Below, piece by piece: positions 25,575-35,796 of a stretch of DNA of 64,000 bases. A model generated the notes under the pieces. The model was not told the DNA's origin. It was given only the letters and a program-made list of their open reading frames with translations, and made no database searches. The stretch covers positions 128,001 to 192,000 of the forward strand of contig CAVYES010000007.1 in assembly GCA_963767735.1 (NCBI GenBank), written 5' to 3'. The stretch comes from Candidatus Bathyarchaeota archaeon. Its GTDB lineage: Archaea > Thermoproteota > Bathyarchaeia > Bathyarchaeales > Bathycorpusculaceae. A program made the translations under genes and the position numbers. Position 1 is the stretch's first letter, and every line of letters starts with the position of its first letter.

Positions 25575-26022
25575 TCTCCAAGTGTGAGTGGTTATTCTAG
25601 CTTATATTTTGCCTCTTATTCCAAAAAGAAATAAAGTAAATGAGGTGACTATTGTGTTTTGTGAAATGAAATTTTATGTTTTGTTCAGTTTTTTGTCTTG
25701 TTGTTGTTACTTGTTAATGGGAGTGAAATGAGGTGTTGCTTGGGTAAATGTTTATAGGCTAAGCTACTACCAAAGATAGTAGCCAGAGAAAGAGAACCCG
25801 AAAGAAAACATCTACTGAGCAAACAAAGCAACGACCGCCTCCACGACAACGGATCTAACCAAACCGATAAATTCATTCTCCTTTCAATCTGTTTGTGACC
25901 CGTTAACCCCTTTTCCCGTGGAGGCGGCGAAGCTCCCCTTGCTTCGAAAAGAAGCGGGTTTCTTAAAGAAAGTTGGCCTCAGAATCTTTGTTCTCTAAGA
26001 ATTTTAACGTAGAAAGCGACCA

Positions 26023-26105
26023 TTTCATGTTGAAAGTGCGGGACGTTGGGTCTGTGCACACCTATGTTGAATCATGTTTGGCGTCTATTGAATCATCTAG
26101 CAGAC
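26023..26105 (+). repeat. Dispersed intergenic repeat, copy A (inverted relative to copy B)
   Basis: 26023-26087 is the exact reverse complement of 40996-41060. Confidence 0.92.
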
Positions 26106-28925: not shown

Positions 28926-29147
28926 TTGTTAGCTTTAGAAACGGGCTTAATTTACAATGTGGTGATTAATTTTTACAATTACGTTGTTAAAGGGATGTGG
29001 TACTTTTTGGTTCTTGCCATTCTTGCGTCTGTCGGAACAGCAGTTTTGTTTGTGTATTTACTTGTGATTCTTTTTTCTTATTTGGCTAAGAGAGAAGTCT
29101 TAAGGAGCTTTCAAAAAAAACCCAAAAAACCCTTATCACAGCGTTAG
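28926..29147 (+). CDS. Small membrane protein
   Basis: Hydrophobic segments, basic tail. Confidence 0.45.
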   Translation: MLALETGLIYNVVINFYNYVVKGMWYFLVLAILASVGTAVLFVYLLVILFSYLAKREVLRSFQKKPKKPLSQR

Positions 29148-29216
29148 AAAGATTAGGCGGAGCGTTGACAGGAGAAAACAAAAGAGAAAAAAATCTGATT
29201 TTGCGACCCTAAACAA

Positions 29217-29618
29217 TCAAGAAAATACAGAGAACGATGATTCGCCTTCAGGCTCTTTTTGTTTATCGTTGATTTCCTTAATTTTCTTTTCAAGTTCCTC
29301 TACTTCTTTAGTATTACCCAACACTTTTTGGCAGTCCCTTGCCTGCTCAAGTCCACTCAGGCCATATCTGTCAAATGCCTTGCTAAACGCGATATCTGCC
29401 GATTTCATGAAAAGTTCGGTGCCTTTCACGCAGTCCTTGAGGGCAACAGCGGCTTCACCAGCTTTATAATACATTTCTGCTGCACCAAAATAGTTCTGTC
29501 CTTTATAGTAAAGCTCGCCAGTTTTGGCAAACATGTCTTTTGCTTCTTCATATTTGCCGTTTTCCATTAGTGAAATGGCTTGTTTGTGCATTTTTATTGG
29601 GTCTACTTTTTCAGTCAT
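29217..29618 (-). CDS. TPR/SNAP-like helical repeat protein
   Basis: Repeated A...Y..A helical pattern. Confidence 0.7.
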   Translation of the reverse strand: MTEKVDPIKMHKQAISLMENGKYEEAKDMFAKTGELYYKGQNYFGAAEMYYKAGEAAVALKDCVKGTELFMKSADIAFSKAFDRYGLSGLEQARDCQKVLGNTKEVEELEKKIKEINDKQKEPEGESSFSVFS

Positions 29619-29759
29619 GAGTTGTCACTCTTTGTCTCTATTTTGAGGTGAACTCCCATTTAGATTTTCCTCTCCAAAAACCTCAAAAAAAGAAAGTAGC
29701 CAAACGGTGAATGGCATAACATAAAAGGCTCTTCCAATATGCAGTAAATAGGAATAAAC

Positions 29760-31160
29760 TTGATGCTACGCTGCATTCAATGTATTCGCTGCGGAACAGA
29801 GTTTCCAGTTTACCCACTGCGAAGTAACTGCGAAAAATGCGGCGGAACACTTGAATTCATAGCTGACTTTCCAGAAGCTGCAAAATTAAGCCTTTCTGGT
29901 CCTTTCGGATTTTGGCGGTACAGACTGATGCTTCCTCCCGTTAAGCATATGGTCAGTTTGGGAGAGGGCGGAACACCATTGCATAGGGCTGAAAGGCTTG
30001 CTAAAGCCGTTGGATTGAAAGACCTTTATTTGAAAGATGAAACCCGCAACCCCACAAGCTCCTACCGAGACCGCGCCGCAGCTTTCTTGACGTCAAACGC
30101 GATTGATCAAGGTTATGCCGCCTTAGTATGTGCCAGTAACGGAAACATGGGGGCTTCTTTAGCTGCCTACACCGCAAAAGCAGCGTTGATTTGCCATGTT
30201 GTGGTTCCTAAAGTTGTTGATGTTGGAAAACTGGCGCAGATGATTGCTTACGACGCCGTCATCGAGGAATCAGGCGTCATCGTGGATGACTCAATCCGAA
30301 AAGCAGCTGGCTTAGCCAAGGAAACAGGATGGTACCAAGCCACCGCCGAACTCAATCCGCTAGTTGTTGAAGCCCAAAAAACCATTTCGTATGAAATTTC
30401 TGAACAGTTTGCCGTTCCAGAATGGGTTATTGTTCCAATGGGAAGCGGCGGAACCATCTATTCTCTTTGGAAAGGGTTTAAAGAACTCAAACAGCTGGAA
30501 CTTACCAGTTCGCTGCCCCGGATGGTTGGGGTTCAGACTGAAGGCTGCGCGCCAATAATCAGCAAACTGAAACAAAACGGTTCCCTAAAAGCCTGCAACC
30601 CATCAACGCGAGCATTAGCTATTCTGGTAGGCGAACCACTCCAAAGCGACTTAGCAATTAAAGCCATAAAAGAATCAAACGGACTAGCTTTAACCGTGAC
30701 AGACGCGGAGATTTTTGCTTCGGAGCTTTTGGTCGCCAAACTCGAAGGAGTCTTCGCCGAACCCGCAAGCTCAGCCGCTGTAGCGGCATTACAAAAATTG
30801 AAAGATGATAAAATTTTAGGCGATGGAAGCGTGGTTTGCCTAATTACGGGGAGCGGCTTAAAGGCGACTGATGTTTTGCAAGCATTGACGAAAAAACAGA
30901 AAGCAGCAGGATTAGGGCTTGCAGTGAGTACAAAACAGAAAATTCTCAAAATCCTCAGCGAAAAAGACACGTATGGTTATGATTTGTGGAAGCAGTTGGG
31001 ACAGATCATGACTCGCGCCGCGGTGTATCAGCATCTCAATGAGTTATCGGACAGAGGGTTGGTGGTTGGCTATGAGGAGAGCGGCAAGAAATTTTTCCGA
31101 ATTACTGAGCGTGGAAGGAAGGTTCTGGCAGCTTTTGATGATATACAGTTGCTTTTGTGA
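29760..31160 (+). CDS. Threonine-synthase-like protein (PLP Lys->Arg) fused to C-terminal PadR-like wHTH
   Basis: Zn ribbon, SLGEGGTPL, NPTSSYRDR, ASNGN, LITGSGLK; then YGYDL...VYQHL.EL...GLV...ITERG. Confidence 0.85.
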   Translation: MMLRCIQCIRCGTEFPVYPLRSNCEKCGGTLEFIADFPEAAKLSLSGPFGFWRYRLMLPPVKHMVSLGEGGTPLHRAERLAKAVGLKDLYLKDETRNPTSSYRDRAAAFLTSNAIDQGYAALVCASNGNMGASLAAYTAKAALICHVVVPKVVDVGKLAQMIAYDAVIEESGVIVDDSIRKAAGLAKETGWYQATAELNPLVVEAQKTISYEISEQFAVPEWVIVPMGSGGTIYSLWKGFKELKQLELTSSLPRMVGVQTEGCAPIISKLKQNGSLKACNPSTRALAILVGEPLQSDLAIKAIKESNGLALTVTDAEIFASELLVAKLEGVFAEPASSAAVAALQKLKDDKILGDGSVVCLITGSGLKATDVLQALTKKQKAAGLGLAVSTKQKILKILSEKDTYGYDLWKQLGQIMTRAAVYQHLNELSDRGLVVGYEESGKKFFRITERGRKVLAAFDDIQLLL

Positions 31161-31222
31161 TTGTTGTTCCGTAACGCTTATTTTATAGTATAGCTGCAAC
31201 TATACTATAGGTGCGGTTTTGA

Positions 31223-32131
31223 ATGAGCGAAACTAAGAGAATAGTTGAGCAAAAAGGAACTGACAGGTTGAAAAGAGGATTTGCCAAAATGGTCAAAGGC
31301 GGCGTAGTAATGGATGTCACTAATGCAGAGCAGGCAAAGATTGCCGAGGCTGCAGGCGCCGTTTCCGTTATGGCACTAGAAGCTGTTCCTGCAGACATAC
31401 GCGCAAGAGGCGGCGTAGCAAGAATGGCTGAACCAAAAAGAGTTAAAGAAATCATTGCCGCAGTAACTGTTCCGGTTATGGCTAAATGCAGAATAGGTCA
31501 TATTGTGGAAGCACAAGTGCTTGAAGCCTTAGGTGCTGACATGGTTGATGAAAGTGAAGTATTAACTCCAGCAGACGAAGACGACCACATCGAAAAAAGA
31601 AAGTTTACTGTTCCTTTTGTATGTGGTGCAAGAAACCTAGGCGAAGCTTTAAGAAGAATAAATGAAGGAGCCGCCATGATAAGGACTAAAGGTGAACCAG
31701 GAACCGGAAACGTCGTTGAAGCGGTAAGACACCTAAAACTCATGAACAGAGAAGTAGCAGCATTAAAACGAATGTCAGACGACCAATTGATAGAAAAAGC
31801 TAAAGAATACTTTGTTCCAGTAGAATTAGTTAAAGAGACAAGAGACCTGGGAAGATTACCTGTCGTGAATTTTGCTGCAGGAGGAATTTCCACACCGTCT
31901 GATGCAGCATTAATGATGCAGTTAGGTGCCGATGGCTTATTTGTTGGTTCAGGAGTATTCAAATCTAAAAACCCCCAAGCTTACGCAAAAGCAATCGTAG
32001 AAGCAGCATTGCATTACGATGACCCAAAAATTCTCGCCAAAATCTCTGAAGGGCTAGGCGAACCAATGGATGGGATAGATACTTCAAAGATGGAAGAAAA
32101 CCAGAAAATGCAAACCCGGGGAACCAATTGA
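31223..32131 (+). CDS. pdxS: Pyridoxal 5'-phosphate synthase lyase subunit
   Basis: [32 protein letters not shown]. Confidence 0.97.
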
Positions 32132-32754
32132 AAGTAGGAGTCATAGCTGTACAAGGTGCGGTAACCGAACACATCGATATTTTAAGGAAAGCAATGAAAG
32201 AACTAAAAATCGACGGCTACACCGTACCTATAAGGGCAACTAAAGACCTCGACAATGTTTCTGGGCTTGTTATACCCGGAGGCGAATCAACAACAATAAG
32301 TCGATTAATACTTGATGCTGGAGTGCAACAAAAAATAATTGAGCTTGCAAAAGAAGGAATACCAATTCTCGGAACCTGCGCAGGCGCAATCCTTCTGGCA
32401 AAAGAGGGTGATGTACAAGTGAAACAGACCAAAACAAACCTACTGGGCCTAATGGAAATGGAGGTCAACAGAAACGCTTACGGTCGACAAGTTGATTCTT
32501 TTGAAGTGGATTTGCAAATAGACGAAATCGGAAAAGAACCTTTCAAAGGAATATTTATCCGTGCACCGACCATCGAAAAAGTTTGGGGCTCCACTAGCGT
32601 TTGGGCGAAGCACCAAACTAAAGTTGTAGGCGCGAAAAGAGGAAATATTTTAGTCCTAACTTTCCACCCAGAGCTAGGCGAAGACCTGAGAATTCATGAA
32701 TACTTCCTAAAAATGGTTTCAAACCAAGAAATTGCTAATGCAAATCGACAGTAA
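32128..32754 (+). CDS. pdxT: Pyridoxal 5'-phosphate synthase glutaminase subunit
   Basis: PGGESTT, GTCAG, RNAYGRQ, FIRAP, FHPEL. Confidence 0.97.
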
Positions 32755-32823
32755 TACATCTCTTCGCCAAGCCGTTGAAAAAGGTTGCCACGCTTAAAAG
32801 CTAGATTTTACTGATGGTAAGCT

Positions 32824-33831
32824 ATGAAACTGCCTCCTGGAAAAATCCCGTTAGACATCCTAAAAGAAGTTGTCTTCAAAAACTTGGGTGCCGAACGCAG
32901 TGAAGTAGTTTTAGGTCCTGCCGCTGGATTAGATGGTGCAGTATTGGATGTTGGGAGCAAGAACGCCATCGTTTCCATGGATCCCATCACTGGTGCAGTT
33001 GAACGGATCGGATGGGAAGCCATCAACATTAATGCTAATGATGTGGCTACGTTTGGGGTTGAACCCGCCTTTTTCTTCTCATGCTTGCTTTTGCCAGAGA
33101 ACGTTGACAGCAAAATCGTTGAAACCATAAGCAGCCAAATGAACGCCGCCGCCAAGGAGCTGGGCATTGCGATTGTTGGAGGACACTGCGAATCAACTCC
33201 GGGACTGACTAACCCGATAGTGGTTGGCTGCATCATGGGCTTAACTGAAAAAGGCAAATACGTTACCGCTGCAGGCGCCAAAGCAGGCGACAAGCTGATT
33301 TTAACAAAAAGTGCTGGAATTGAAGGCACTGCAATCTTAGCCTCCGACCGCGAAGCGCAACTAAAAAAAGTTTTTACCCCGAGCTTCATAGAGAGTGCCA
33401 AACGTTTCTCCGGTCAAATAAGCATCGTAAAAGACGCCTTAACAGCTTATAGAACAGGCGGAGTCCACGCGATGCATGACCCAACTGAAGGCGGAATACT
33501 AAACGGCATTCACGAAATGGCAGACGCAGCTGGCTTGGGCGTGCGCGTTTTTGAAGAGAAAATTACGGTTGAACCTGAAACCGCAAAAATATGCAGGTTC
33601 TATGAAATTGACCCTTTGCAACTGATTAGTTCAGGCGCGCTACTCATAGCTGCCAAACCTGAAGAAGCAAACAAAATAATCGATGCCTTAAGCCTTGAGC
33701 ATATTTACGCTGACCTCATAGGCGAATTCAACATCTCCCCCAACAAACGAATACTAATGCATAAAGACGACACCGCAGAAATGCTGCCAAGACCTGTCTC
33801 AGACCACCTATGGATTGCTTTAACCAATTAA
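32824..33831 (+). CDS. AIR synthase-related (HypE/PurM-like) protein
   Basis: DPITGA, NANDVA, IVGGH, AMHDPTEGG. Confidence 0.88.
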   Translation: MKLPPGKIPLDILKEVVFKNLGAERSEVVLGPAAGLDGAVLDVGSKNAIVSMDPITGAVERIGWEAININANDVATFGVEPAFFFSCLLLPENVDSKIVETISSQMNAAAKELGIAIVGGHCESTPGLTNPIVVGCIMGLTEKGKYVTAAGAKAGDKLILTKSAGIEGTAILASDREAQLKKVFTPSFIESAKRFSGQISIVKDALTAYRTGGVHAMHDPTEGGILNGIHEMADAAGLGVRVFEEKITVEPETAKICRFYEIDPLQLISSGALLIAAKPEEANKIIDALSLEHIYADLIGEFNISPNKRILMHKDDTAEMLPRPVSDHLWIALTN

Positions 33832-33946: not shown

Positions 33947-34945
33947 GTGCATGGACGGTTAAAAATGAAAGTTTACGTTAAAACCCCAGCCAGACTACAT
34001 TTAGGACTCATTGATTTAGGAGGCGAACTGGGGCGGGTTTTTGGCGGAATAGGAGTAGCCGTAAATCGACCTAACGTTATTCTTGAGGCAAAATCAGCCC
34101 AAAATCTTGAGTTTTCGGGCGAAAAAAACGAAAATTTACGACCCATAGTGGAACGGCTGCTTAAAAAATATAACATAAAACCCCAAGTTTCTATTAACGT
34201 AAGACAGACCATCCCTGAGCACGTTGGATTAGGTTCGGGAACCCAGTTATCGTTAGCCGCTGCCGCTGCGGTATCAAGGCTTTTTGGTTTGAAGGTCCCG
34301 GTTGAAAGTCTAGCTTGTTTAACGGGAAGAGGATATGTTTCGGGTGTAGGAACAGCACTCTTCAAGCAAGGCGGTTTTGTTGTTGAAGCTGGATTAAAAA
34401 GTCAAGGAAACAAGCCTGCTCCCCAAGCCTTGGAAAATCTTCCGCCGGTAATATTTCGTCAGTCATTTCCAGCAGACTGGTTTTTCGTTATAGCTATCCC
34501 CGACGTTAAAAAAGGATTGTCTGGTCAAGAGGAAGCCAAAGCGTTTGGGCATTTGCAGCCCATGCATAGAGAAAAAGCCGCCCTCATAAGTCACCTGATA
34601 GTTATGGGACTGCTACCAGCGCTCCAAGAAAGAGACATAGAAACCTTTGGAAAATCGTTAACAGAAATCCAAAGCATAGTGGGAGACTACTTTGCAACGG
34701 TTCAAGGAGCACGATTCTCAAGTTCCCCAGCGGGAGACTGCATAAGGCACATGCTGGAAAACGGAGCTCACGGCGCAGGGCAAAGCTCCTGGGGGCCAAC
34801 CGTTTACGGACTCGCCCACGGAGAAGCAGAAGCAAAAAAACTGTCAATTTCAACCAAGAAGTTCTTGCAAGAAAACGTCGGCGGACAAGTATTCTTCACA
34901 ACAGCAAACAATAAAGGAGCCTACATAAAAACAGCGGCATCATAA
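33947..34945 (+). CDS. mptG: Beta-ribofuranosylaminobenzene 5'-phosphate synthase (GHMP family)
   Basis: TPARLHLGLID, HVGLGSGTQ, GQSSWGPT; start probably ATG at 33965. Confidence 0.88.
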   Translation: MHGRLKMKVYVKTPARLHLGLIDLGGELGRVFGGIGVAVNRPNVILEAKSAQNLEFSGEKNENLRPIVERLLKKYNIKPQVSINVRQTIPEHVGLGSGTQLSLAAAAAVSRLFGLKVPVESLACLTGRGYVSGVGTALFKQGGFVVEAGLKSQGNKPAPQALENLPPVIFRQSFPADWFFVIAIPDVKKGLSGQEEAKAFGHLQPMHREKAALISHLIVMGLLPALQERDIETFGKSLTEIQSIVGDYFATVQGARFSSSPAGDCIRHMLENGAHGAGQSSWGPTVYGLAHGEAEAKKLSISTKKFLQENVGGQVFFTTANNKGAYIKTAAS

Positions 34946-34992
34946 AAAACAGGTCTTAGAATAACACAAAACGCAAGATTTACTTGGAATAA

Positions 34993-35796
34993 TTGAGGAG
35001 AAAACACGTGAACTTTACACTGGATGATTGGCTTCCGTGGTATAACAAAATTCTTGAAACCTTCGGGTACGACCAGTCGGGAGATCAGCGGGCAACTGAT
35101 TTGCTCAGCGTGTTGCTTGAGGGGCGGGCTGGGCATGTGACTGAACTAAGGAAGCTAATTGAAAATAGACCTGTGTTGGTTTTTGGTGCCGGTCCATCTC
35201 TTGAAGAAGACCTCAGAGAAGTCATAAAAGAAGGACTCTTGAAAAAGACCGTGACCGTCGTAGCTGACGGAGCGACAACAGCCTTCGTTCAAATATCAGG
35301 AACAACACCAAATGTAATCGTAACCGACCTGGACGGAATAATAAGCGACATTGTTTATGCTCAGCGTCTAGGAGCTATTATGGTTATTCATGCGCACGGC
35401 GATAATATTGAAAAGTTGAAAAAATATGTGCCAGAATTCTCTAGAGCTATAGGCAGCACACAGGCGCAGCCCCGTTCTAATGTCCACAATTTTCTGGGTT
35501 TCACCGACGGTGACAGGGCAGTTTTTCTAGCAGCAGGAATGGGGGCTAAACTGATTGCCTTAGCTGGAATGGATTTCGGATGCACCGTGGGCAAATACTC
35601 CAAGAAACAAGTGGCATCAATTGAGGTTAAGAGAAAAAAACTCAAGTTCGGGAAAGAACTACTTGAATGGCTAGCTACTGAAATGGCAGAAAAAATTAAG
35701 CTTTATAACATCACGTTTAACGGGGAAAACATTGAGGGATTTAGAAACATCAAAACCTCAGATTTACAAAAAATTGTCCGAAGCGCAACAATGTGA
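34993..35796 (+). CDS. mptE: 6-hydroxymethyl-7,8-dihydropterin pyrophosphokinase (DUF115)
   Basis: GAGPSL, VADGA, VTDLDG, HAHGDN, GFTDGDRA. Confidence 0.9.
   Translation: MRRKHVNFTLDDWLPWYNKILETFGYDQSGDQRATDLLSVLLEGRAGHVTELRKLIENRPVLVFGAGPSLEEDLREVIKEGLLKKTVTVVADGATTAFVQISGTTPNVIVTDLDGIISDIVYAQRLGAIMVIHAHGDNIEKLKKYVPEFSRAIGSTQAQPRSNVHNFLGFTDGDRAVFLAAGMGAKLIALAGMDFGCTVGKYSKKQVASIEVKRKKLKFGKELLEWLATEMAEKIKLYNITFNGENIEGFRNIKTSDLQKIVRSATM

Follow-up and report, generated by a model that had tools for sequence, protein, structure and literature searches.

The window analysed here is a stretch of 64,000 nucleotides from Candidatus Bathyarchaeota archaeon, and all coordinates below are positions within it. 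On its forward strand, a gene at 29760..31160 is followed by pdxS (31223..32131), pdxT (32128..32754) and a gene of the PurM/AIR-synthase superfamily (32824..33831). The first of these encodes a pseudoenzyme of the ThrC fold with a PadR-type winged helix-turn-helix (wHTH) fused at its C-terminus, as judged from the list of open reading frames (ORFs), Pfam, NF004170 and the AF2 model; for the role proposed below we call it the regulator gene. Its ORF comprises 466 amino acids when counted from TTG at 29760, although the ATG at 29763 is more probable as the start, given that homologues begin with MLRC. The stop codon ends at 31160 and the ATG of pdxS lies at 31223, leaving the 62-nt spacer that had been reported in the initial annotation of this sequence.

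Both subunits of PLP synthase were identified with confidence. The lyase subunit, encoded by pdxS and proposed here as the regulated gene, matched NF003215 with 496.8 bits (cut-off 395) and was the single match in the window's genome, while the glutaminase subunit PdxT matched TIGR03800 with 215.4 bits (cut-off 105.55). As pdxT overlaps the pdxS stop codon by 4 nt, the two genes belong to the same operon. The PurM-family gene was assigned by PF00586 and PF02769; its closest families were HypE (107 bits) and ThiL (97 bits), both below their cut-offs. In most related loci it follows either pdxST or a gene for the S component of an ECF transporter, and it may be co-transcribed with these target genes.

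The regulator protein begins with a Cys-rich, zinc-ribbon-like segment (29772..29840, forward strand), read from the translation, with Cys5, 8, 11, 24 and 27; the translation of the genome's own ThrC has a similar N-terminal segment. Residues 65-364 (29952..30851, forward strand) match PALP (PF00291, E 1.1e-71) and constitute a fold-type II PLP-enzyme domain, supported by both Pfam and Foldseek, that we propose as the sensor. Residues 395-457 (30942..31130, forward strand) match PadR (PF03551) with an E-value of 3.9e-11 and 43.2 bits against a cut-off of 27, and this match spans model positions 1-74 of 75. The ~75-aa PadR-like wHTH that had been described at the C-terminus is thereby confirmed. 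Sensor and DNA-binding domain are joined by a flexible linker at residues 374-388 (30879..30923, forward strand), the only region in which pLDDT fell below 50.

The AF2 model of the protein had a mean pLDDT of 91.1, with the disordered linker leading into a confidently predicted wHTH in which residues 386-465 form three helices, a two-strand wing and a last helix. The top Foldseek matches of the model were threonine synthases, with TM-scores (target) of 0.83-0.87 among the bacterial ones. When the protein was modelled as a homodimer, the score was 0.84 compared with 0.00 for the best control; as dimers of ThrC have already been solved, this pass may reflect likeness to them only. Of the proteins solved as same-chain pairs, 20 of 30 reached this mark, as did 1 of 23 single-chain ones. 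The homodimer runs shared at least 91% of their contacts, and partner pLDDT was at least 85.

We examined the active site by alignment to the solved threonine synthases 2zsj and 2d1f, in which the lysine that forms the PLP Schiff base lies in the motif NPTGSFKDRG. The regulator reads NPTSSYRDR at residues 97-105, and Arg103 (codon CGA, 30066..30068, forward strand) aligns with that lysine, in agreement with the replacement that had been noted from the sequence. CGA differs from AAA at two positions. Arginine was found at this position by regular expression in 119 of the 120 closest listed database homologues (74-96% identity), the one other giving no match to the expression. Among 119 Bathyarchaeia orthologues collected from genome loci, 97 likewise have arginine. 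As arginine recurs in both sets, Arg103 is not a sequencing slip. A family alignment combined the query and the genome's own ThrC with 150 representatives at 50% identity (152 rows). Of the 81 rows that contain the C-terminal domain, 6 have the lysine, compared with 67 of the 71 that do not contain it.

The initial annotation had suggested testing whether the change from lysine to arginine is conserved; it is found in the 97 orthologues, and the other 22 retain lysine. These form a distant subclade: none exceeds 51% identity to the window protein. They nevertheless keep the wHTH, and 12 of the 22 loci have operator sites of the kind described below, mostly directly 5' of the S-component gene. 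Loss of the lysine is therefore unnecessary for the role of the family, which weakens the non-covalent part of the model presented below. Retention of lysine by orthologues had been named in the initial annotation as part of what would speak against its interpretation; seen in this distant subclade, it refines that interpretation rather than refuting it.

Positions on the cofactor side of the pocket were retained throughout. N129, G228, G230, D104 and R105 were invariant in all 119 orthologues and T232 was retained in 113. The PMGSGG and TGSGLK loops, which had been listed as surviving, were located at residues 226-231 and 363-368, and TGSGLK was likewise kept among the orthologues. The regulator departs from ThrC at four positions where the genome's own enzyme, 2zsj and 2d1f all agree (M130, V202, and S229 and T232 at the N residues of GNAGN), and we take these to be the substrate-phosphate site. 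In place of the T that follows GN (position 130), every one of the 119 orthologues has M, L, H, Q or I; none has the R of NPxRIEGQK (position 202); and 106 have S for the first N of GNAGN.

The window's genome also has a canonical thrC of 416 amino acids with NPTGSFKDRG, located away from the regulator locus and adjoining a gene read as homoserine dehydrogenase (hom, C5:308213-309199). The architecture of a pseudoenzyme plus wHTH, as originally described, is real and conserved, and it occurs in a genome with a separate canonical thrC. We considered whether the protein might still be an enzyme, either threonine synthase or another PLP enzyme, with a DNA-binding tail. TIGR00260 (thrC) gave 189.8 bits, above its cut-off of 167.1; every one of the 45 source names given for the 120 listed homologues is 'threonine synthase'; and the distant subclade keeps its lysine. 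However, the regulator has Arg103 where threonine synthase (EC 4.2.3.1) has its Schiff-base lysine, and the canonical enzyme is encoded elsewhere in the genome. We consider an enzymatic role very improbable.

NF004170 (PRK05638), a 'threonine synthase' equivalog, has the same full-length architecture as the regulator. It matched with 406 bits, below its cut-off of 421, over model positions 2-441 of 442 and regulator residues 6-459. By the curated score rule the regulator is a relative of this family and not a member. A true member from Thermococcus chitonophagus (P0132, 799.6 bits) has arginine at the lysine position together with a C-terminal domain; no member over the cut-off was found among 14 control genomes. 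NF004170 appears to be misnamed, as its protein is fused and lacks the lysine. The 'threonine synthase' label is widespread, including in this NCBIfam equivalog, and the present analysis corrects the annotation. Where lysine-less fused proteins are so labelled, predicted threonine prototrophy is inflated.

The spacer between the regulator gene and pdxS contains the proposed operator (31184..31209), a perfect 10+10 palindrome with a 6-nt centre: TATAGTATAG-CTGCAA-CTATACTATA. This 26-bp element ends 13 nt 5' of the pdxS ATG, and its left arm overlaps a TATA-like stretch. A matching palindrome arose in 0 of 100 shuffles, and the element is the sole exact match in the genome. The core pattern TAGTT-N2-AACTA, with at most one mismatch, was then searched in the 150 nt that precede the S-component gene of related loci, and 25 sites were found in 19 of the 24 loci that have this gene. 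A weight matrix was trained on those 25 S-component sites of relatives only, leaving out the window's own site. When the whole 3,044,997-bp genome was scanned with this matrix, the top match was the pdxS site with 30.2 bits; the second-best match had 17.0 bits, and only six matches reached 12 bits genome-wide. In the window and in two further genomes, G082 and G056, 9-14 nt lie between the end of the 28-nt matrix match and the pdxS ATG.

Other candidate sites were assessed as well. The 17.0-bit match (C4:493755) was rejected as a regulon member, as it lies inside an ORF without a Pfam match, and a three-mismatch match to the pattern on contig C9 was rejected because it does not rise above the reversed-pattern control. 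Two weak PF07155 genes elsewhere in the window's genome had no site of 12 bits or more. With regard to autoregulation, no site of at least 14 bits was found upstream of the regulator gene in any of 80 related loci, and the window's own spacer upstream of the gene (29619-29759) had none of at least 12 bits.

We assessed the occurrence of the operator in these 80 related loci (60-88% identity). The S-component gene was directly downstream of the regulator in 76 loci, 75 of which had a site of at least 14 bits. Two loci had pdxS-pdxT downstream, each with a site, and in the remaining two the S-component gene lay further on, again with a site in front. The operator thus precedes a PdxU2-like S-component gene in 77 of the 78 loci that have the gene, although these S-component counts are not fully independent, as at least three genomes (L118/G142, L135/G008 and L146/G130) occur both in the training set and among the 80 loci tested. 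The pdxS sites are independent.

The association was also seen for pdxS genes distant from the regulator. Twenty-four pdxS loci from a sample of the class were compared at a threshold of 12 bits. A site was present before pdxS in G082 (31.8 bits) and G056 (21.4 bits), the only two of the 24 genomes that carry the regulator: two of two genomes with the regulator, compared with none of 22 without it. Together with the window and two related loci (L086 and L091), the operator precedes pdxS-pdxT in five genomes. Five genomes of the same genus that lack the regulator retain the arrangement of S-component and PurM-like genes, and none has the site; a TPR gene was also in view in three of the five. 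We regard the link of the regulator to this DNA site as strong.

The initial annotation had connected the gene to vitamin B6 through its position upstream of pdxS. The connection to B6 proved stronger than could be seen from the window, as the operator lies before pdxS or the S-component gene and only where the regulator occurs. Synteny with pdxS is not its main basis: of the 121 loci examined, only three (the window, L086 and L091) have pdxST behind the regulator, and the operator is the conserved element. The regulators of these three loci belong to a single supported clade of 14 rows, in which they are interleaved with S-component-linked ones, a pattern that would fit either one swap of target or three. 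In a second lysine-less clade, the gene is divergent to pdxST in three loci and to the S-component gene in 6 of 13 further loci. The tree that covers both clades (A and B), which may share one origin, was made with FastTree only and has a midpoint root.

As any palindrome folds as RNA, the site could also be read as an RNA hairpin or terminator unrelated to a protein that is simply an enzyme with a tail. Its sequence is conserved beyond pairing, however, and a matrix that considers sequence only finds it. No Rfam family was found in 29000-33000 at E-values up to 1. In addition, the palindrome precedes pdxS far from the regulator gene and therefore cannot be the regulator's terminator, and it is absent from all 22 pdxS loci and all five same-genus loci without the regulator. 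This explanation is as improbable as the enzymatic role to which it belongs.

The S component of the relatives belongs to PF07155 (E 2e-29 to 7.8e-38), and its best solved relative is 4hzu_S (E 1.8e-16, compared with 1.9e-4 for RibU). A portion of PMC4860826 describes 4hzu_S as HmpT/PdxU2, from which pyridoxamine was extracted as the substrate, and an excerpt of PMC9997740 lists PdxU and PdxU2 as PF07155 transporters of B6. When the HmpT pocket residues given in that portion of PMC4860826 were compared with the S component of one relative (L056), three of six were identical (Y120, N140 and Q143) and three were changed (E41 to D, H84 to K and Q87 to E). The PurM-family gene was also considered as a candidate for a missing B6 kinase. 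No PF08543 (PdxK/ThiD type) match was found in the window's genome (94.9% complete), and a strong one is present in three of five relatives with the S-component arrangement.

These data also bear on whether a regulator acting at this operator might respond to a ligand other than B6, such as the thiamine precursor hydroxymethylpyrimidine, or O-phosphohomoserine or threonine inherited from its ThrC ancestry. HmpT was earlier predicted to carry hydroxymethylpyrimidine, according to the same portion of PMC4860826; only half of its pocket residues are identical in the relative; and the conserved gene that follows the target resembles ThiL and HypE, a possible pointer to thiamine. An amino-acid role would fit the canonical thrC-like gene that lies upstream and divergent in six loci of one family (L047-L051 and L072). 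However, none of these six loci has an operator between the regulator and the thrC-like gene, and sites at or above threshold stand only before the S-component gene. The positions shared by real ThrCs are replaced and those on the cofactor side are invariant. The same operator precedes pdxS-pdxT in five genomes, and we know of no product of pdxST other than PLP. A ligand other than B6 is therefore unlikely, and the amino-acid sensor that had been offered as an alternative is less likely than a sensor of B6.

We propose, with a probability of roughly 70%, that the gene encodes a dimeric, PLP-sensing repressor of B6 synthesis and uptake, a one-component transcription factor and not a threonine synthase. 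The sensor would be a duplicated threonine-synthase fold that kept its cofactor-side motifs and lost the Schiff-base lysine and four ThrC positions. The protein would dimerise through an interface of the ThrC type, placing its two C-terminal PadR-type winged helices on the palindrome at 31184-31209. Plentiful PLP, or a close B6 vitamer, would bind non-covalently in the old cofactor pocket, and the ligand-bound dimer would occupy the operator and block transcription of pdxS-pdxT, perhaps of the PurM-family gene too. When B6 is scarce, the operator would be free. For most relatives, the target of this regulator and operator would be a PdxU2/HmpT-like S-component gene, so that uptake of B6 is controlled in place of pdxST. 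The data show the architecture, the loss of the lysine, the separate thrC, the operator and its strict co-occurrence with the regulator gene and with B6 genes; DNA binding by the regulator, PLP as its ligand, the non-covalent mode of binding and repression over activation are inferred.

The sign of regulation could be the reverse, with the apo protein recruiting the transcription machinery and PLP releasing it, but we consider a B6-responsive activator of this kind improbable. The site covers part of the TATA-like stretch, and in three genomes 9-14 nt separate its end from the start codon; a site at such a position usually occludes an archaeal promoter. The five same-genus genomes that lost regulator and site kept their S-component and PurM-like genes, which is simpler to account for if expression does not depend on the regulator. 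Bacterial PdxR, however, works in this way, being an activator in its apo form according to an excerpt of PMC5320631, and the sign cannot be read from the position of the site alone.

Compared with known threonine synthases (TIGR00260; 2zsj, 2d1f, 6nmx and 1v7c), the regulator shares the fold, 35-38% identity, the Cys-rich N-terminus and the predicted dimer interface, and differs in lacking the Schiff-base lysine, in the four replaced positions and in the added linker and wHTH. With the PadR family (PF03551) it shares a wHTH that scores above the cut-off and a putative target that is palindromic. Typical PadR proteins are small and stand-alone, with the wHTH at the N-terminus, whereas the regulator is 466 aa long and carries the domain as its C-terminal tail. 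The archaeal regulators ThiR (thiamine) and RbkR (riboflavin) join a DNA-binding domain to an enzyme domain of the same vitamin's metabolism and control genes for synthesis and uptake. They differ from the regulator in fold and vitamin, but the logic is the same.

The closest functional parallel is with bacterial MocR/PdxR proteins, whose PdxR regulons contain pdxST, pdxK and pdxU, as stated in part of PMC5320631. Both systems fuse a wHTH to a domain derived from a PLP enzyme, both have an operator made of repeats that suits a dimer, and both combine pdxST with a PdxU-type transporter in the regulon. MocR proteins have an N-terminal GntR-type wHTH and a fold-type I aminotransferase domain that keeps its lysine, whereas the regulator has a C-terminal PadR-type wHTH and a fold-type II ThrC domain with arginine in place of lysine. 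As the same part of PMC5320631 states that MocR is absent from Archaea, and as the architectures differ, the regulator is of independent origin.

A literature search found no regulator of the ThrC fold or of fold-type II and no archaeal B6 regulator; its scope was the published text, and the supplementary tables of PMC5320631 and PMC9997740 may list candidates. Within that scope, and with MocR/PdxR stated to be absent from Archaea in the excerpt of PMC5320631, the regulator would fill a gap. If the proposal is true, it provides a clear case of an enzyme fold turned cofactor sensor, with the lysine-retaining subclade as a possible intermediate. More broadly, we give even odds to the idea that two large clades with a ThrC fold and PadR-type wHTH, almost all without the PLP lysine, are the main B6 sensor-regulators of Archaea. 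They would be independent of MocR/PdxR and would read free PLP by means of a dead cofactor pocket; the lysine-containing subclade would be an intermediate, and NF004170, including its protein in cultured Thermococcus, would be the same regulator.

As pdxS was present in only 25 of 151 sampled Bathyarchaeia genomes, the regulon also marks lineages that make B6 and lineages that import it, a distinction that bears on vitamin exchange in soils and sediments. RNA contigs from two peat runs covered the regulator and spacer with only a 35-nt piece of a relative, which is no evidence of silence. Logan contigs from two peat RNA libraries of one study, which can contain DNA and whose contigs show neither starts nor strand, were identical to pdxS at 31578-31844 and to pdxT at 32156-32435.

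The window protein is encoded on the forward strand at 29760-31160 (466 amino acids when read from the TTG); since its homologues start with MLRC, translation more likely begins at the ATG at 29763. Pfam assigns a PLP-enzyme domain to residues 65-364 (E 1.1e-71) and a PadR winged helix-turn-helix (wHTH) domain to residues 395-457 (43.2 bits against a cut-off of 27), which bears out the C-terminal PadR-like fusion proposed in the initial annotation. That annotation had also read NPTSSYRDR in place of the lysine motif of threonine synthase, and correctly so: the motif occupies residues 97-105, and Arg103 (codon CGA, 30066-30068, forward strand) aligns with the Schiff-base lysine of the solved threonine synthases 2zsj and 2d1f. 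As described there, pdxS (31223-32131) begins 62 nt downstream of the fused gene and is followed by pdxT (32128-32754), both on the forward strand and both passing their NCBIfam equivalog cut-offs.

The genome containing the window, a Bathyarchaeia MAG of 3.04 Mb and 94.9% completeness, encodes a separate canonical ThrC of 416 amino acids with the motif NPTGSFKDRG; the regulator gene is a paralogue of thrC, distinct from the genome's own. An ORF adjoining the canonical gene (C5:308213-309199) was read by eye, rather than by profile search, as homoserine dehydrogenase. Alignment of the window protein with its own ThrC and with 2zsj and 2d1f revealed four further changes: M130 replaces the T after GN, V202 the R of NPxRIEGQK, and S229 and T232 the two N of GNAGN. 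We take these four positions to be the substrate-phosphate site of ThrC. Among 119 Bathyarchaeia orthologues, position 130 was never T and position 202 never R, and the cofactor-side residues N129, G228, G230, D104 and R105 were invariant. Judged by the lysine, the window protein should not be a threonine synthase. Six loci of one family (L047-L051 and L072) have a canonical thrC-like gene upstream of the regulator gene in divergent orientation, which may be a relic of a tandem duplication that gave rise to the regulator.

The loss of lysine was assessed in an alignment of 152 rows, comprising 150 representatives at 50% identity, the query and the genome's own ThrC. Lysine was kept in only 6 of the 81 rows with a C-terminal domain vs 67 of the 71 rows without one, and three of the four lysine-less rows in the latter set were fragments of 131-247 amino acids. 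C-terminal fusion goes together with lysine loss. FastTree, a quick method, was run on the PLP domain with the lysine column taken out, and the tree was rooted at its midpoint. Three groups emerged: clade A (26 rows, support 100), to which the window protein belongs and where Arg predominates; clade B (50 rows, support 96), whose lysine column holds Leu, Ile, Val, Met or Thr; and 71 rows that are mostly canonical lysine enzymes. Conservation of the lysine-to-arginine change, a point raised with the initial annotation, held for 119 of 120 close homologues and for 97 of the 119 orthologues, but the other 22 orthologues keep Lys, all of them at most 51% identical to the window protein. This lysine-retaining subclade (L053-L076; 48-51% identity) also keeps the wHTH domain.

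In an AF2 model of the window protein (mean pLDDT 91.1, pTM 0.79), the ThrC-like body is joined through a disordered linker (374-388) to a wHTH predicted with confidence (389-465). The best Foldseek matches in the PDB were threonine synthases, with target TM scores of 0.83-0.87 among the bacterial ones. When two copies were predicted together with PLP included, the dimer scored 0.84 vs 0.00 for the best control; 20 of 30 proteins solved as pairs of one chain attained this mark, as did 1 of 23 solved as single chains. The runs showed contact agreement of at least 91% and partner pLDDT of at least 85, with the predicted interface in the ThrC body. As ThrC dimers have already been solved, this score may reflect likeness to them.

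The proposed operator is a perfect palindrome, TATAGTATAG-CTGCAA-CTATACTATA, at 31184-31209. It was matched by none of 100 shuffles, has no other exact copy in the genome, overlaps a TATA-like stretch with its left arm and ends 13 nt before the pdxS ATG. We compared 41 loci, namely 40 orthologous loci from the class-wide sample and the window's own. The commonest conserved neighbour (24 of 41 loci) was a gene immediately downstream on the same strand that encodes an ECF transporter S component of PF07155. In the window, pdxS-pdxT fill this slot and are followed, as in relatives, by a PurM-family gene. The S-component gene is closely preceded by a related palindrome, whose core is TAGTT-N2-AACTA (25 sites in 19 loci, with at most one mismatch). 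A 28-nt matrix trained solely on these S-component sites was scanned over the whole genome, and its best match was the pdxS site at 30.2 bits; the second best reached 17.0 bits inside an ORF, and only six matches scored at least 12 bits. Between the divergent TPR and regulator genes of the window lies a 9-nt inverted repeat (29641-29649 and 29680-29688, 30-nt loop), which did not match the operator matrix.

A further 80 named Bathyarchaeia loci (60-88% identity) were then considered; some come from genomes also used in training, and therefore only the pdxS sites are fully independent. The S-component gene was directly downstream of the regulator in 76 of these, with a site in 75, and pdxS-pdxT were directly downstream in two (L086 and L091), both with a site. 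In the remaining two, the S-component gene was further on and was again preceded by a site. Although labelled Candidatus Limnocylindrales bacterium, L091 shares the pdxST arrangement and encodes the regulator (83% identity); either the binning or the labelling was probably in error. Within the lysine-retaining subclade, operator sites were found in 12 of 22 loci, and in several of these the S-component gene is preceded by a tandem pair of sites spaced 27-30 nt apart.

The operator and the clade A regulator also co-occur where pdxS lies away from the regulator gene. Beyond the window's genome, the class sample contains 24 pdxS loci, and a site is present in just two of them, G082 (31.8 bits) and G056 (21.4 bits). 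Both of these genomes carry a clade A regulator, encoded far from pdxS, and none of the other 22 does. In these two and in the window, the 28-nt match ends 9-14 nt before the pdxS ATG. The matrix found no site at pdxS in any of the 22 genomes without a clade A regulator. Five same-genus genomes (L194-L198) have S-component and PurM-like genes in the same arrangement without the regulator gene, and none has an operator site. Between the TPR gene, in view in three of the five, and the S-component gene there is neither regulator gene nor operator, as if the regulatory module had been naturally deleted. Clade B genes are oriented divergently from pdxST in three loci, where the lysine column reads Met, Leu and Leu, and from an S-component gene in 6 of 13 further loci.

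The product of pdxST is PLP. The nearest solved relative of the S component is 4hzu_S (E 1.8e-16, vs 1.9e-4 for RibU). This structure is HmpT/PdxU2, from which pyridoxamine was extracted (PMC4860826), and PMC9997740 lists PdxU and PdxU2 among PF07155 members that transport B6. Bacterial PdxR regulons include pdxST, pdxK and pdxU (PMC5320631). Because of pdxST, the HmpT/PdxU2-like S component and the likeness to PdxR regulons, we infer that B6, as PLP, is the ligand. Against B6, only Y, N and Q are identical among the six named pocket residues of HmpT in the relatives' S component, a thiamine precursor was the first predicted cargo of HmpT (PMC4860826), the gene behind the target is HypE/ThiL-like, and the six loci of one family have the divergent thrC-like gene.

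We further infer that the regulator binds DNA and represses. A dimer joined through a ThrC-type interface would bring both of its wHTH domains to the palindrome lying across the pdxS promoter. Operator binding would be favoured once the former cofactor pocket is occupied by PLP or a near vitamer, so that abundant B6 would switch off pdxST or, in most relatives, the uptake gene instead. Arg in place of Lys would make PLP binding non-covalent and readily reversible, and the lysine-type subclade would bind its ligand via a reversible aldimine.

The window protein is probably an enzyme-derived, vitamin-sensing one-component regulator. It would work like PdxR, but both PdxR domains differ from its own; neither is present, and the window protein is therefore not a MocR member. 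According to PMC5320631, Archaea have no MocR regulators. The window protein is closely related to NCBIfam NF004170 'threonine synthase' but scores 406 bits, under the cut-off of 421. P0132, a true member from Thermococcus chitonophagus (799.6 bits), has Arg at the lysine position and a wHTH; the family name is probably wrong and the misannotation systematic. A literature search for a ThrC-fold or fold-type II regulator, or for an archaeal B6 regulator, found no description. New here are an operator and regulator directly on pdxST, the genome-wide scan and the natural-loss control.

Only 25 of the 151 sampled Bathyarchaeia genomes (18 of the 95 of high quality) yielded a pdxS gene, and most sampled lineages may need imported B6. 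The PurM/AIR-synthase-superfamily gene at 32824-33831 scored 107 bits for HypE and 97 bits for ThiL, both below the cut-offs. In most related loci this gene follows either pdxST or the S-component gene, and in G007 (L172), which has no regulator, it closely precedes pdxS-pdxT in the same orientation. Its product may be a B6 salvage enzyme not yet described, perhaps an ATP-dependent kinase. Just downstream, at 33947-35796, are genes for a beta-ribofuranosylaminobenzene 5'-phosphate synthase family protein and an MptE-like pterin diphosphokinase, and this stretch is a cofactor-gene cluster. A pair of 75-nt inverted repeats (26013-26087 and 40996-41070; 95% complementary, 14.9 kb apart) encloses a ligase gene, the regulator, pdxST and the cofactor genes.
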